From: a virus
Taxonomy: Duplodnaviria; Heunggongvirae; Uroviricota; Caudoviricetes
IMG/VR virus record: IMGVR_UViG_2636416136_000011
Strand: one strand, 5' to 3'
DNA: 41,816 nucleotides
In this document: piece by piece, positions 7,778 through 38,321 of the stretch
How positions within the stretch are numbered: position 1 is the first letter of the stretch
Layout of the letters: the number at the start of each line of letters is the position of its first letter
Translations under genes and position numbers: made by a program
Notes under the pieces: model-generated
What the model saw: only the letters and a program-made list of their open reading frames with translations
Told to the model about the DNA's origin: nothing
Database searches by the model: none

Positions 7778-8841
7778 TAAAGCCCTCTTTCCCTCGCTGA
7801 TGAGGAAACAAGATCCGCCGCGCCACGCGCTTCACACATCATATCCATGTACCACGCCTGGCCCCTTGTGTCGCCAGTGTACATAATCCCGCGCACAATA
7901 TAAACGCCATCCGTTGCGATGCTGGCAGGCTGCGATGTGGTGCCGCTGAGCGTGATATTTCCGTCCGTGTTCTGGTCGGTGATCTGACCACCAGCCATCG
8001 CAATATCGTTGTTCGACAACGCGGTACGATAGACGGAAGCCTGATCCAGCTGAATGAGCCCGTTAACCCGGATGTTCGGATTAATAAGCGCGCGGACGTT
8101 TACGCCGTTACCGATAGTCTGCTGCGGCATTCCAATAAGCCCGGTAGCGCTGTTGAGCACAATCGCTTCGTGAACATATTCGTTATTCGCCACCATCTGG
8201 CGCTGACCGTCCACGAATTGCCATGTTGCGCCACATTGTCCGGCTACGTTATCCATTAGATGCCGCGTCATGCCAAAGAGTACCCGCCCCCGAGGGAATA
8301 CAGTAGCAGGCATTTCAGGCGTCAGGCCTTCGGTCGCGCCTTTGGCTTCGAAGTCTTTCATCAGCGCACGGTTCACATCAGCGACCGTGTAACCGGCAGC
8401 CAGCGTCTGTGAGGTTATACTGGTAGCAAAAGCCAGATCAGTATCTGCTGCCTGAATCAGGACGTAGGTATCAACCGGACTGTCTTTTCCTGTGACCGAG
8501 TAGCGAATTTCACCGCTGAAAATCAGTCCGTAGTTGCGGCCATCTCTCTGGCCCACGTCCGCCGCGTCAACTTCCCGCACGGTCCCTACGTCGCTTGCTG
8601 ACACCTCCGGCGCGATACCGTCGTAACCGGCAATCAGACGCACTTTCGAAAACTCCTGCCCGGTAATTCGGTTCACAGTATCTGCCGAGAGGTTATAAAT
8701 TTTGATAGTCCCTACCCGGGACGCGCTGCTGATGTTGAACCAGTCGATCGTAAAGGTGACTTTGAAATCACTTAGCTCAATTCCCTGACCGTTCCCGTCC
8801 ACAAGCTGCAGCTCGAAATGTCTCATCCAGTTCTGTGACAT
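7777..8841 (-). CDS. Baseplate hub / tail protein (gpD/gp44-like position)
   Basis: 354 aa, third gene after the tape measure gene. Confidence 0.45.
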   Translation of the reverse strand: MSQNWMRHFELQLVDGNGQGIELSDFKVTFTIDWFNISSASRVGTIKIYNLSADTVNRITGQEFSKVRLIAGYDGIAPEVSASDVGTVREVDAADVGQRDGRNYGLIFSGEIRYSVTGKDSPVDTYVLIQAADTDLAFATSITSQTLAAGYTVADVNRALMKDFEAKGATEGLTPEMPATVFPRGRVLFGMTRHLMDNVAGQCGATWQFVDGQRQMVANNEYVHEAIVLNSATGLIGMPQQTIGNGVNVRALINPNIRVNGLIQLDQASVYRTALSNNDIAMAGGQITDQNTDGNITLSGTTSQPASIATDGVYIVRGIMYTGDTRGQAWYMDMMCEARGAADLVSSSARERGL

Positions 8842-32106: not shown

Positions 32107-32655
32107 ATGAAACTGAAGCTGAACAATGTTCGTCTGGCCTTCCCGTCTCTGTTTGAAGCTAAAACTGTAAACGGCGAAGGCGATCCGCGTTTCTCCGCAG
32201 TATTTTTAATGTCTCCCAAACACCCACAACTGGAAGAAATCCGTAAAGCTATGAAGCAGGTAGCGAAGGAAAAATGGGGGGAGAAGTGGGAGTCCATTTA
32301 TAACCAGCTGGAGAAAAAACTCAATCTGTGCCTGCATGATGGTGATGAAAAAGCAGAGTATGAAGGCTTTCCCGGCAATTTCTTCCTGAACGCTGCTAAC
32401 AAAGCGCGCCCAGCTGTTCTTGATCGCGATCGTTCGCCACTAATTCAGGCTGATGGACGTCCCTATGCAGGGTGCTATGTAAACGCCGTTATCGATATCT
32501 GGGCACAGGACAATAATTTCGGTAAACGCATTAATGCCTCACTCGGCGGAGTCCAGTTCCTGCGAGACGGCGATGCATTCGCTGGCGGCGGAGTGGCAAG
32601 CGCTGACGATTTCGACGATATCAGCGAAGGTGCTGATGCTGAAGCACTAATTTAA
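32107..32655 (+). CDS. DUF2815-like protein (putative ssDNA-binding replication accessory)
   Basis: 182 aa, N-terminus MKLKLNNVRLAFPSLFEAK; sits between the DUF2800-like nuclease and the polymerase. Confidence 0.55.
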   Translation: MKLKLNNVRLAFPSLFEAKTVNGEGDPRFSAVFLMSPKHPQLEEIRKAMKQVAKEKWGEKWESIYNQLEKKLNLCLHDGDEKAEYEGFPGNFFLNAANKARPAVLDRDRSPLIQADGRPYAGCYVNAVIDIWAQDNNFGKRINASLGGVQFLRDGDAFAGGGVASADDFDDISEGADAEALI

Positions 32656-32665
32656 AAATATTCAT

Positions 32666-32686
32666 CCCCCAGCTGCGTGCTGGGGG
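32666..32686. other. Perfect 8-bp stem-loop CCCCCAGC-TGCGT-GCTGGGGG
   Basis: Seen directly in the intergenic DNA 11 bp after the DUF2815 stop; no clear U-tract. Confidence 0.35.
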
Positions 32687-32706
32687 ATCTCATGAGGGAA
32701 AGAATA

Positions 32707-33345
32707 ATGTCACAGCCCGTATTAACTAATTACCTTAAAACTCAAATCATCAATAACGCACTTGAGAAAGCGGGTATCCCCAAACGTAAATCAGCACTAC
32801 GAGCTGCTCGTGTTGAATGGGCCGAACGTGTTCGGCTTGCAGCTATCGGGGGCGTAGAGAAAGAAGCTGAAATATTAAAAAATATAAAAAAAATAGAAAC
32901 ACTGGTATCAAAATTCCCCGAAGCATTAAAAACCGCCAATAACATTATCAGGGAAGAGTGTTACATGTGTCTGAATCTGGCAGGTTCTCGGGTTACCGTC
33001 TATTTCAACGGTAACTACCGAGGATATGAATCAGGGTCACCAGACCATATTCACAAAATCGCGCCGGGGGAATTTACCCTTCTGGCAAATGACCCTCTAG
33101 TTACAGAGTTTTACGGGTTTGATACACTTTATGAGCAGATACAGAGCGATGAGTCAGACATTCGACAGAATGTCAGCGCTGCACTCAGTAAAGTGCGCAC
33201 AGTTAAGCGCCTGCTGGAAGAGTGGCCTGAAGCTAAAGAACTTCTGCCAGCCGATGCACCATCTGCTCCGCTTCCGCCAGCTATACGACGCGAAACTCTC
33301 AACGAAATGATCGGCCTCCCTTCTGACGAAGGGGTAGATGCTTAA
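32707..33345 (+). CDS. Hypothetical protein
   Basis: About 212 aa; start set at MSQPV with GAGGGAAAG upstream. Confidence 0.45.
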   Translation: MSQPVLTNYLKTQIINNALEKAGIPKRKSALRAARVEWAERVRLAAIGGVEKEAEILKNIKKIETLVSKFPEALKTANNIIREECYMCLNLAGSRVTVYFNGNYRGYESGSPDHIHKIAPGEFTLLANDPLVTEFYGFDTLYEQIQSDESDIRQNVSAALSKVRTVKRLLEEWPEAKELLPADAPSAPLPPAIRRETLNEMIGLPSDEGVDA

Positions 33346-33412
33346 TATTTCTTATAACAAAGGCTGGCTTAAGAAAATAGTTATCCAAACCAGCCTACCG
33401 CAATACTAAAAA

Positions 33413-33682
33413 TTAAAATTCATTGAATTTAAAAAGACATTTCCCTATTGGATTGCCATAGTCTCTACATACCGAAATGCTGTCCCATACAGGCTGAGCC
33501 AAACACCCAAGAAAGAACCCAATAAGCGCAAAAATTATAATTTTGGGAAGAACACGATCCTTAGGACCTTCTTCACGTTCGAGCCATGCGCCACCAGCCC
33601 GAACTATTCTCCCTAAAATATAAAGAATGGGGAAAGCAATAATACCTATCAATGAAAGTATTCCGATACCAAAGCTAAACAC
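33413..33682 (-). CDS. Small two-TM membrane protein, antisense to the replication operon (cargo candidate)
   Basis: 89 aa with two hydrophobic helices (IGILSLIGIIAFPILYIL and IIIFALIGFFLGCLA); A+T-rich local DNA. Confidence 0.5.
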   Translation of the reverse strand: MFSFGIGILSLIGIIAFPILYILGRIVRAGGAWLEREEGPKDRVLPKIIIFALIGFFLGCLAQPVWDSISVCRDYGNPIGKCLFKFNEF

Positions 33683-33738
33683 CGCCGTCTCCTTGTTTAT
33701 TTACACCTACATAACCATATATCACACAAGGTTATTTT

Positions 33739-35802
33739 ATGTCCAATATACTATGGGGTGACCTAGAAACCTATTGCGAAATCCCTATTACGAACGGTAC
33801 CCATGCGTATGCCGAAGGCGTTGAAGTGATGCTGTTCGCATGGGCTATCAACGACGAGCCCGTAAACGTGTGGGATATCACTGCCGGTGGTGGTATTCCA
33901 CACGGCTTATACGAAGCAATCGCAGCCCCTGAAACCCTGCTTTATTTTCATAACTCTCACTTCGACCGCACCGTCCTGCGTTATGCAATGCCGCGCCTGG
34001 CACCGCCAGTCGAACGTTGGCGCGACACAATGGTGCAGGCGCTGGCGCACGGTCTCCCGGGGTCTCTGGGGGAACTCTGCGAAGTACTAGGCGTCCCGCA
34101 AGACAAAGCGAAGGACAAAGAAGGTAAAGCGCTGATCCAGCTGTTCTGTAAGCCACGCCCGAAAAACAGCAAACTGCGCCGGGCCACCAGCAAAACCCAC
34201 CCGGAAGAATGGCGGCGCTTTGTTGCTTACGCCGGACTGGATATCGAGGCAATGCGCGAAGTCTATAAACGTCTGCCGAAGTGGAATTATCAGGGGACAG
34301 AACTGGCGCTCTGGCATCGTGATCAGCAGATCAACGACCGGGGCGTCTGCATGGACATTCAACTCGCGCGCGCTGCGATCGAAGCGGTAGACCAGGAGCA
34401 AAAGCGCCTGGCAAAGCGTACACAGGAAATGACTGATGGCGAAGTGCAGGCAGCAACACAACGGGACGCGTTGATTAAGCACATCGTTGAATCCTACGGT
34501 GTGGAGCTACCAGACATGCAACGCAGTACTCTGGAACGTCGTATAGCCGACCCCGATTTACCATCTGCCGTGAAAGAACTGCTGGCTATCCGCCTGCAGG
34601 CCAGTACTACCAGCACCAGTAAATACAAGGCACTGATGAAAGGCGTAAGCCACGACGGGCGCTTACGCGGTACGCTACAGTTCTGCGGGGCGTCACGTAC
34701 CGGTCGTTGGGCCGGACGGCTATTCCAGCCCCAGAACCTTCCCCGCCCTTCACTAAAACAGGAACAAATAGACGAAGGCATCGAAGCACTGAAAGCCGGA
34801 TGTGCAGACCTGCTGTTTGACAATATCATGGAACTAACCAGTTCAGCGTTACGTGGCTGCATTATCGCGCCAACAGGCAAAAAACTGGTGGTAAGTGACT
34901 TGTCGAACATTGAAGGCCGTATGCTGGCATGGCTGGCGGGAGAAGAATGGAAACTGAATGCATTCAGAGAGTACGACGCCGGAACGGGTCCGGACTTATA
35001 TAAACTGGCGTATGCAAAAGCTTTCGATATTGCACCAGATGATGTTGATAAACACATGCGTCAGATCGGTAAAGTCATGGAACTCGGTCTGGGTTATGGA
35101 GGTGGTGTATCGGCTTTCATCACTTTTGCTCTGGTTTACGGTCTCGATCTCGACGAGCTGGCGAACGCCGCACTGCCAAACATTCCCCGCGATGTTATCC
35201 GCGAGGCGAAAAGCTGGTACAACGAATCGGTTAAACGTAAGTCGACCTTTGGCCTGTCCGAGCGTGTATTCATCGCATGTGACTCGCTCAAGCGCCTGTG
35301 GCGCAGGGCGCACCCGGCGACCTGCGATTTCTGGTACGAACTGGAGCGCACCGTCCGCACTGCAATCGCCACACCGCAAAAAACATTGTATTGCGGTTAT
35401 CTTAAAATCCGCCGCGATGGCGCGTGGCTGCGCATACAGCTACCATCCGGACGCGCTGTATGCTACCCCTCTCCGGTTATCGAAAAAGGGAATATCACCT
35501 ATATGGGTGTTAACTCTTATTCGCGTAAATGGCAACGACTCAAAACCTACGGCGGAAAGCTGGTAGAGAACGTCACCCAGGCGGCCGCCCGCGACGTTCT
35601 GGCCGGAAACATGCCGCTTATCGAAGATGCCGGTTACAGCATTGTGCTGACGGTACACGACGAGGTGATCACCGAAGCACCTGACACAGAAGATTTCAAC
35701 GATAAAGCGCTTTCCGCGCTTCTCTCCACTAACCCCGAATGGGCGCCCGATATCCCACTGAACGCTGGCGGTTTTGAGGCGTACCACTACCGTAAGGATT
35801 AA
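33739..35802 (+). CDS. Family A DNA polymerase with N-terminal 3'-5' exonuclease domain
   Basis: Exo motif WGDLETY; polymerase motif [17 protein letters not shown], motif [17 protein letters not shown], motif C LTVHDEVI. Confidence 0.85.
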
Positions 35803-37003: not shown

Positions 37004-38004
37004 ACCCTAACGCAGCACAATGGCTGCGTAACCTTATTGCTGCAGGTCATATCGCCCCGGGTGAAGTTGATGAAAGGAGTATCGAAGATGTCGCACCAGA
37101 CGACTTGCGCGGATTCACACAGTGCCATTTCTTCGCCGGGATCGGCGTCTGGTCTTATGCTCTGCGTCTGGCCGGATGGCCGGATAACAAACCGGTCTGG
37201 ACAGGAAGTTGCCCGTGCCAGCCTTTCAGCTCGGCTGGTAAAGGCGCTGGGTTTGATGACGAGCGGCACCTATGGCCAGCACTATTCCACCTCATCAGCG
37301 AGCGACGCCCTAAGCTGGTATTTGGCGAACAGGTTGCGGGAGTCAATGCCTGGTTCGATCTTGTACAAACTGACGTGGAAGCAGTGGACTACGCCTTTGG
37401 GCTTGTCCCGTTTCCGGCTGCGGGCGTCGGTGCCCCGCATATCCGAGATAGAGCGTATTGGGTGGCCGACGCCAGCGGCGAGCGATCACAGCGGTGGCGA
37501 AAGCGCCTCAATAGCATTGAGGAAGATGTCTGGAGATCGTCGACCGTCCGGCAACACGCTACACAGCTCCCTGCGGAATTTTGCTCACCTAGCGGGGTGG
37601 TACACCCCAACCTGCAACACAAACCCACAGCCGGAGACAAAACGCGGTCTAGAAACCTTAGCGGGACTATCCAGATTAGCGGGATGGCCGACAGTGACGA
37701 CGATCGACAACAACCAAGTTCGTGCCGAGGGCGCAGCGGCCAATCATACCGAACGGGGAACGACCCTCGGCGGCGCTGCGAGAATCTGCGGCCCAATACG
37801 ATTAACGGCTGCTGGGATGGTGCTGACTGGCTCCTCTGCCGGGATGGTCGCTGGCGGCCAGTTGAATCCGGCACATGCCCGTTGGCTAATGGGATTACCT
37901 CCAGAGTGGGACGACTGCGCGCCTACGGCAACGCGATAGTCGCACCAGCTGCCGCAACATTCATCCGCTCGTTTATGGAATGCGCAGGATACGACCTTAT
38001 TTAA
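36976..38004 (+). CDS. DNA (cytosine-5) methyltransferase, Dcm-like
   Basis: Motif I FFAGIGVW, motif [15 protein letters not shown], motif VI FGEQV, motif [13 protein letters not shown] and C-terminal YGNAIV, all in one frame. Confidence 0.8.
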
Positions 38005-38321
38005 TGCCACTCACATCTGGCATGATACCGTCCAGAAGGTAATTGCTTATATACAACGGAGCCGCCCATGGCATAAGTATAAGCATGAAGTTTTGTCCAG
38101 AAGTCCCCATAAACTAGTATTGGGGCTAAAAATTTTGGATCGCTAACCATAGATGTAGCAGGAAGCTCGAAACCTTTAGAAAGAATGTTTACCAGTGAAG
38201 GGTAATTTTCAAAATCAGTGCTATTCCCGCCCACCTCTAAAGCATCCAGTTCAAAGTCGAGCACTCCACCATTTTTGTAATACTCCGGAACAGTTAACCC
38301 TGATGTTAACAAAGTAGCCAT
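38001..38321 (-). CDS. Hypothetical protein, antisense A+T-rich insert with strong RBS (cargo candidate)
   Basis: 106 aa; AGGAGG eight nt upstream of the ATG on the minus strand; no motif recognised. Confidence 0.5.
   Translation of the reverse strand: MATLLTSGLTVPEYYKNGGVLDFELDALEVGGNSTDFENYPSLVNILSKGFELPATSMVSDPKFLAPILVYGDFWTKLHAYTYAMGGSVVYKQLPSGRYHARCEWH

Follow-up and report, generated by a model that had tools for sequence, protein, structure and literature searches.

Between the Nmad5-family gene and the DNA polymerase gene of an Escherichia coli prophage lies a short open reading frame (ORF) on the opposite strand, which we call ORF89. We analyzed ORF89 within IMG/VR virus record IMGVR_UViG_2636416136_000011; the window, i.e., the whole stretch of DNA that was analyzed, is 41,816 nucleotides (nt) long. 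Our analyses indicate that ORF89 is a genuine, self-contained, and dispensable accessory gene of a temperate E. coli prophage, or "moron," the term for an autonomous promoter-ORF-terminator unit inserted between the genes of a conserved phage operon. Its product is predicted from sequence to be a two-pass hairpin in the inner membrane with both ends outside the cytoplasm. A prophage moron encoding a small inner-membrane protein is of a known kind, and the family to which ORF89 belongs is described by no curated library. Replacing the annotation "hypothetical protein" with "conserved two-pass membrane moron protein" is well supported, and no new mechanism is demonstrated.

Since many spurious antisense ORFs of more than 100 amino acids (aa) overlap neighboring genes, the length of ORF89 is, on its own, little evidence that it is a gene. 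We consider it real because it fills an otherwise empty gap of 393 nt between the Nmad5 stop codon (33345) and the polymerase ATG (33739), because it is annotated in RefSeq, and because it has full-length homologs with invariant residues in 118 clusters. The homologs start with ATG at the aligned position, and this supports the GTG start of ORF89. An earlier, sequence-only reading of the window had described an 89-aa antisense protein with two hydrophobic helices in an A+T-rich gap facing the DNA polymerase gene. This description held, as Kyte-Doolittle hydropathy in 19-residue windows identified hydrophobic segments at approximately residues 3 to 24 and 48 to 66 (means up to 2.4), and the G+C content was 0.385 at positions 33400 to 33799 versus 0.45 to 0.59 in the flanks. 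The coordinates given in that reading, 33346 to 33738, are those of the whole Nmad5/polymerase gap, and the ORF itself occupies only 33413 to 33682. The base composition of ORF89 is unlike that of the genes that flank it, which is one of the marks of a moron.

Chromosomal prophages of E. coli F11, BH100, and other strains contain this region with 100% identity. The F11 element, whose tyrosine integrase gene adjoins yfhL, carries myovirus-type structural genes and encodes a lambda-family holin, an endolysin, antiterminator Q, a VapE primase, and a LexA/CI-type repressor. Its replication block comprises genes for a DUF2800 nuclease, an Enc34-type single-stranded-DNA-binding protein (SSB), Nmad5, ORF89, DNA polymerase, methyltransferases, and SNF2. 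A related prophage was found in 159 of 5,426 complete E. coli genomes, and ORF89 was present in 32 of these 159, never in more than one copy and with an identity of 99.5% or higher. The content of the slot between the SSB and polymerase genes varies among prophages that are otherwise 97 to 99% identical (Table 1), and ORF89 is present or absent among close relatives with sharp borders at the SSB stop codon and the polymerase ATG, a second mark of a moron. When the window was compared with a sister prophage that also bears Nmad5 (the variant with the 229-aa gene), the breaks fell at 33321 and 33712, such that the ORF89 cassette proper spans 33322 to 33711. The SSB-polymerase gap is a cassette-exchange hotspot. 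Most of the related prophages without ORF89 carry other, usually A+T-rich, antisense genes there. None of the alternative cassettes matched the PADLOC models convincingly.

In three phages that have been isolated (vB_EcoM-606R2, 689R2, and 611R5), the slot contains the 209-aa variant and ORF89 is missing, so ORF89 is dispensable for phage growth. Comparison with related prophages thus bears out an accessory gene: it is antisense, low in G+C, followed by its own stem-loop, and located in a slot whose content varies. That the gene is "inserted," as the sequence-only reading put it, is correct insofar as the slot is a site of cassette exchange, but it is incomplete, since the slot is occupied by diverged homologs in prophages that are less closely related. 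Four further E. coli copies differ from the window at only 1 or 2 of 393 positions in the cassette versus 1.0 to 1.7% in the flanks. The only coding change among them is V71A (33471), and this polymorphism is too low for a test of selection. A 1-nt deletion in ORF89 in the MG2014 assembly of BH100 (NZ_CP024650.2) is probably an assembly error, given that later assemblies of BH100 are intact.

Over longer distances, ORF89 diverges faster than its neighbor. Relative to a prophage integrated at sbcB in E. coli, the polymerase retains 89% protein identity and ORF89 retains 55%; relative to a Serratia prophage, the corresponding values are 75% and 46%. In the sbcB-site comparison, the nonsynonymous divergence (dN) was 0.45 for ORF89 versus 0.069 for the polymerase, i.e., ORF89 changed ~6.5 times faster at nonsynonymous sites. 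The ratio of nonsynonymous to synonymous divergence (dN/dS) against the syntenic E. coli homolog was ~0.19, with dS being saturated. ORF89 therefore looks like a long-term, fast-evolving resident of the slot that has been replaced by other cassettes in most E. coli relatives.

The topology check proposed in the sequence-only reading also came out in favor of two membrane segments, since hydropathy, positive-inside bias, and the modeled helices all agree with a two-pass protein. The loop between the two hydrophobic segments of ORF89 contains six lysine or arginine (K/R) residues, and two cysteines are found in the 25-residue tail. Across a 91-sequence alignment of the family, the density of K/R residues is highest in the loop (0.224), lower in the tail (0.099), and lowest at the N terminus (0.029). 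An AlphaFold2 model built with the family alignment had a mean predicted local distance difference test (pLDDT) score of 90.9 and placed helices at residues 8 to 34, 44 to 74, and 79 to 88; given these positions, Cys72 and Cys82 flank a helix-turn-helix. Based on the positive-inside bias and the tail cysteines, we predict that the N terminus and the tail are periplasmic, that the loop is cytoplasmic, and that the tail bears a disulfide bond. In this prediction, a C72-C82 disulfide would pin the short periplasmic helix to the extended second helix.

ORF89 at first appeared to be an orphan restricted to E. coli because a word-indexed search returned only copies at least 98% identical, but an exhaustive HMMER search overturned this impression. 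It recovered 118 homolog cluster representatives at E < 1e-3 and 36 at E < 1e-10, nearly all of them 85 to 95 aa long and aligning from end to end. In the 91-sequence alignment, C72 and C82 never vary, G55 and G59 are almost invariant, and all 91 sequences have exactly two tail cysteines. The loop is characterized by the motif R28-[RK]-x2-A32-W33-x2-R36-x3-P40-[KR]-[ED]-R43-V44, and the second helix and tail are characterized by G55-F-x2-G59-S-x2-Q63-P-x-W66-D67 followed by C72-x3-G76-x-P78-x3-C82. ORF89 has all of the conserved family positions, including G55xxxG59-x3-Q and Cx9C. A variant in a 4.3-kb European Nucleotide Archive metagenome contig (P0003) loses the otherwise invariant second cysteine through a C82F change, which may be a sequencing error.

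The family ranges from the Enterobacterales to the Burkholderiales and Campylobacterota. Named members come from Serratia, Pantoea, Polaromonas, Undibacterium, Roseateles, Castellaniella, and Herbaspirillum, and one is on a Sulfuricurvum plasmid, which was also the single match when plasmids were searched by tblastn. A hand-made motif pattern identified six true members among species-representative genomes and 10 loci on viral contigs; 8 of the 10 were on contigs that had already been confirmed, and the other 2 were then confirmed. Members of the family are present on seven IMG/VR viral contigs, and tblastn against 50,697 phage records gave no match. A literature search found no study of the ORF89 gene.

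The genomic surroundings of the homologs link the nearest branch of the family to prophages. Identities to ORF89 are HMMER/BLASTP values. The homolog in the sbcB-site E. coli prophage (P0121; 59% by BLASTP and 55% in a global alignment) lies antisense between the SSB and polymerase genes, and no homolog of this type was found in complete RefSeq E. coli genomes. A prophage remnant of Serratia nevei (P0006; 49% identical, 46% in the family alignment) carries its homolog antisense in the same SSB/polymerase slot. In a Pantoea lambdoid prophage (P0010; 48%), the gene lies antisense between the lysis cassette and the terminase genes, and the same interval and orientation were observed in a lambdoid prophage that also carries Kiwa (P0130, from the same 90%-identity cluster as P0008, which is 48% identical). 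A lambdoid IMG/VR viral contig (L062) has its member antisense and adjoining the holin-lysozyme cassette; the terminase was not located on this contig. In an Undibacterium prophage, the member (P0024; 44%) adjoins the CI-type repressor region. Antisense, stand-alone family members thus occur in no fewer than six distinct prophages, and the closest relatives of ORF89 (46 to 59% identical, from the Enterobacterales, on contigs long enough to place the gene) are all prophage cargo that is antisense to the flanking lytic genes.

Two of these contexts provided additional information. In the S. nevei remnant (L021 to L023; gene at 8001 to 8279), the 92-aa homolog is identical on all 13 contigs, and in some strains the polymerase is broken into pieces or persists only as a 47-aa fragment, and the SSB gene is either split or absent. 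The survival of an intact homolog in a decaying prophage hints that it is under selection in the host, with the caveat that 279 nt is a small target for mutation. The P0130 prophage has the Kiwa pair KwaA/KwaB, flanked by the Q antiterminator and a methylase (L025:12353-13763, plus strand), which shows that prophages with an ORF89 homolog also host recognized defense cargo. Other members occur in further mobile contexts, namely, an integrase island with AbiTii, AAA_15, and DUF4238 genes, an integrase islet in Roseateles, a cluster of RelE/helix-turn-helix (HTH) and GNAT genes in Castellaniella, and the Sulfuricurvum plasmid.

The transcription signals around ORF89 were also analyzed. The stem-loop downstream of the gene (Table 1) is likely its terminator; it is weaker than the canonical hairpin terminators that follow the homologs in L007 and L026, and it was not listed by a strict terminator scan. 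No plus-strand promoter for the polymerase gene was detected inside the cassette by scan, and no convincing one was apparent by eye. Since the cassette has no evident plus-strand promoter, the polymerase gene is probably transcribed from upstream, antisense across ORF89. We infer from such read-through that ORF89 could be expressed in lysogeny, when the early operon is repressed, and would be opposed in lytic growth. An Rfam search of positions 33100 to 33900 returned no RNA family at E < 1.

As the leading specific function of ORF89, we tentatively propose that it blocks genome entry by superinfecting phages, a role that is plausible by analogy with known systems. In this scheme, transcription against a repressed replication operon would allow the protein to be made in the lysogen, and read-through from polymerase transcription would silence it in lytic growth. 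The conserved loop, GxxxG helix, and periplasmic tail may contact either a conserved inner-membrane component or the ejection or tape-measure apparatus of the incoming phage. Such contact would prevent genome entry, as with HK97 gp15, T4 Imm, and P22 SieA. HK97 gp15 is reportedly a superinfection-exclusion moron. ORF89 resembles it, and morons generally, in being a stand-alone small membrane-protein gene of atypical base composition that is present or absent among close phages and has its own likely terminator; it differs in that lysogen expression and exclusion are proposed for ORF89 by analogy.

T4 Imm, which blocks the entry of superinfecting DNA (PMC11436027), is an 83-aa protein that, like the predicted ORF89 product, is a small two-helix inner-membrane protein encoded near a phage DNA polymerase gene. 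However, Imm lacks the cysteine pair that forms the Cx9C motif of ORF89, and imm belongs to a lytic phage, is codirectional with its neighbors, and is expressed early in infection, whereas ORF89 is an antisense prophage gene. P22 SieA is a prophage-expressed inner-membrane protein that is alone sufficient to block DNA injection and whose types share under 30% identity (PMC10883804). ORF89 is likewise predicted to be an inner-membrane protein of a prophage, but SieA proteins are 162 to 164 aa long with three predicted helices and a conserved cytoplasmic motif, FxRYPxEAxxFNK (PMC10883804), whereas ORF89 has 89 aa, two helices, and no such motif. The two are set apart by these described features of SieA, and they have no PHROG or Pfam family in common.

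Several observations weigh against exclusion of superinfecting phages as the function of ORF89. The protein has no similarity to known exclusion or defense proteins: scans of ORF89 and of the 91 family members against Pfam (at E < 0.1), NCBIfam, PHROG, and PADLOC gave no match, zero families among the PADLOC-DB 2.0 defense models matched ORF89 at E < 0.1, a profile search of the PDB found no sequence match, and Foldseek comparison of the ORF89 model with the PDB and BFVD found nothing at E < 1. Homology to T4 Imm was rejected specifically, with an hhalign probability of 2% and no match to Pfam Imm_superinfect. The evidence for a promoter is weak, as a strict scan found none upstream of ORF89. 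The breadth of the family, which extends from the Enterobacterales to the Burkholderiales and Campylobacterota, favors a generic host target over a phage-specific one. Finally, distant members lie at the edges of vgrG/Tle1 clusters of type VI secretion systems (T6SS) (two members, 62% identical to each other), after an RTX protein gene, after an ATP-binding cassette (ABC) exporter gene, and downstream of pyridine-nucleotide-disulfide oxidoreductase genes (two members). Since these contexts are nonmobile, the family as a whole is not dedicated phage cargo. The enterobacterial branch is exclusively phage-borne, but the whole family is not.

These same observations bear on other explanations. ORF89 could be a small membrane protein of a lysogenic-conversion or housekeeping type that is not aimed at phages and that tunes an inner-membrane complex, envelope redox, or a stress response, i.e., a host-type gene captured because it benefits the lysogen. 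We regard this as a serious though somewhat unlikely account. The lack of any PADLOC match fits it, as does the persistence of an intact homolog in the decayed Serratia prophage, and conserved residues on both membrane faces together with the wide taxonomic range would suit a conserved host partner. Members in a Thiotrichales metagenome-assembled genome (L045:5748-7399, minus strand) and in Undibacterium terreum (L048:1296-3222, plus strand) lie directly 3' of different Pyr_redox_2 flavoprotein genes and are codirectional with them. The Thiotrichales copy is 9 nt 3' of its neighbor, and the U. terreum copy follows an NDH-2-like gene. This adjacency could be due to chance or could reflect a redox link for the conserved cysteine pair. 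Other copies are near glutathione S-transferase genes or inside a polysaccharide cluster. In contrast, the closest relatives that could be placed are all prophage cargo in accessory slots, no core E. coli homolog of ORF89 turned up in protein searches, and a nonsynonymous rate ~6.5 times that of the polymerase is more typical of conflict genes.

The secretion-associated members raise the question of whether ORF89 is an orphan immunity-type protein against membrane-acting toxins of competitors, such as T6SS effectors or bacteriocins and microcins exported by type I secretion systems. Class II microcin immunity proteins are small multipass inner-membrane proteins; two family members are at the edge of vgrG/Tle1-like effector clusters, and the member that follows the ABC exporter gene is 29 nt 3' of it with an HlyD-like partner nearby. 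However, the usual immunity position in the Tle1 clusters, overlapping the effector gene, is taken by another gene, the family member is either convergent with the cluster or 800 bp upstream, and the prophage copies have no accompanying toxin gene, so we consider this explanation improbable.

We also think it unlikely that ORF89 is a toxic membrane protein, whether a type I toxin, an effector of abortive infection, or a pore former, holin- or antiholin-like, that depolarizes the cell when derepressed. As in the type I toxins Hok, ShoB, and Ldr, a small hydrophobic protein is encoded where antisense RNA control is possible: ORF89 is antisense to a strongly transcribed operon, and its layout implies a full-length antisense RNA. 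The homolog also adjoins the lysis cassette in three lambdoid prophages. Nevertheless, type I toxins usually have fewer than 60 aa and one helix, whereas ORF89 has 89 aa, two helices, a conserved predicted-periplasmic Cx9C motif, and a wide full-length family, and neither an Rfam small RNA family nor a toxin family matched. The type I toxin-like role suggested in the sequence-only reading was thus not upheld. A holin was also considered and rejected, since no holin family in Pfam or PHROG matched and a lambda-type holin, an endolysin, and another lysis gene are already present elsewhere in the prophage. In addition, the homologs beside lysis cassettes are on the opposite strand, and the gene is intact in the dead Serratia prophage without an obvious antitoxin.

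The position of ORF89 next to the polymerase gene could instead reflect a lytic-cycle function tied to the replication module, e.g., as a membrane anchor for the replisome. The slot is indeed kept in the window, the sbcB-site E. coli prophage, and Serratia while polymerase identity falls to 89% and 75%. However, ORF89 is antisense to the replication genes, it is absent from ~127 of the 159 related prophages and from the three viable isolated phages, and homologs are found in unrelated modules and outside phages altogether. A replication function is accordingly very improbable.

Returning to protection of the lysogen, a broader form of the proposal can be stated. ORF89 might exemplify a new, widely distributed class of protective factors, each encoded by one gene and located in the inner membrane of proteobacteria. 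Every such protein would be a hairpin of two helices plus a periplasmic helix held in place by a Cx9C disulfide. Temperate phages of several unrelated types would have captured such genes repeatedly to shield their lysogens, through a block to phage genome entry or through neutralization of membrane-acting toxins, and the proteins would bind a conserved machine of the inner membrane, not a phage-specific target. We offer this generalization as speculative and rather doubtful. If exclusion of phages or toxins were correct, a single-gene family of ~90 aa with no Pfam, PHROG, or PADLOC model would be added to the protective membrane proteins encoded by prophages, and the gap between the SSB and polymerase genes in this lineage of E. 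coli prophages would be a cargo hotspot, with at least five alternative cassettes, that could be mined. The family offers precise handles for mutation in its invariant Cx9C, its GxxxG, and its conserved loop.

Table 1. Coordinates of ORF89, its encoded segments and signals, the neighboring genes, and the alternative contents of the slot
Feature	Position	Strand	Details
ORF89 coding sequence	33413..33682	-	89 aa; GTG start; TAA stop at 33413-33415; RefSeq WP_000490741.1, "hypothetical protein"
First predicted transmembrane helix, codons 3-24	33611..33676	-	Hydropathy; AlphaFold2 helix spans residues 8-34
K/R-rich loop, codons 25-47	33542..33610	-	Predicted cytoplasmic; family motif R-[RK]-x2-A-W-x2-R-x3-P-[KR]-[ED]-R-V
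Second predicted transmembrane helix, codons 48-66	33485..33541	-	Near-invariant G55xxxG59; conserved Q63 and W66
Predicted periplasmic tail, codons 67-89	33416..33484	-	Invariant C72 (33467-33469) and C82 (33437-33439); Cx9C across helix-turn-helix
Shine-Dalgarno sequence AAGGAG of ORF89	33689..33694	-	6 nt 5' of GTG; read from sequence
Stem-loop AGGCTGG(TTT)...(AAG)CCAGCCT	33361..33396	-	Followed by TTTGTTAT on minus strand; no T-run on plus strand
Candidate -10 hexamer TAAAAT	33734..33739	-	5/6 match; weak; 51 nt 5' of GTG; overlaps polymerase ATG; -35 match 3/6
Family A DNA polymerase gene	33739..35802	+	Context; divergent from ORF89, 56-nt spacer
Nmad5-family gene (RefSeq start)	32707..33345	+	Shares slot with ORF89; convergent with ORF89
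Enc34-type SSB (DUF2815) gene	32107..32655	+	Context; left border of slot
Variable cargo slot, SSB stop to polymerase ATG	32656..33738		Homology to sister prophages ends at 32655 and resumes at 33739 (pairwise BLAST)
Slot alternative: Nmad5 + ORF89			Arrangement in the window
Slot alternative: Nmad5 + antisense 229-aa gene	L003:1543-2232	-	Soluble product
Slot alternative: antisense 199-aa gene	L004:883-1482	-	G+C 0.29-0.32; several hydrophobic helices
Slot alternative: antisense 209-aa gene	L005:909-1538	-	phrog_10579; G+C 0.29-0.32; several hydrophobic helices
Slot alternative: BRO-N gene	L006:1013-1915	+	Forward

Other features of the replication region were noted. Among the prophages of this lineage, only some have the Nmad5 gene that shares the slot with ORF89. 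The Nmad5 family is one to which escape mutations against the E. coli Tmn defense system have been mapped (2025 conference report, PMC12908700). In the 51-nt spacer between the SSB stop codon and the RefSeq start of Nmad5, a strong GC-rich hairpin of 10 bp (32664 to 32688, minus strand) precedes ATATTTTT on the minus strand; antisense transcripts from the slot could be halted there before they reach the SSB gene, or the hairpin could instead act on the plus-strand operon.

Downstream of the polymerase gene, phage vB_EcoM-606R2 carries a gene with a TIR-like domain directly after the polymerase gene (L002:5913-6674, plus strand), and the decayed Serratia prophage has a CAP12-PCTIR_TIR gene in the corresponding region (L022:5052-5813, minus strand). 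From these two TIR genes, the position just 3' of the polymerase gene looks like a second cargo site. The window also contains a second antisense ORF between the DNA cytosine methyltransferase and SNF2 genes (38001 to 38321, minus strand), which encodes a soluble 106-aa protein annotated as hypothetical in RefSeq and has a G+C content of 0.42. The sbcB-site prophage has a 109-aa ORF in the same antisense position (L007:4725-5054).

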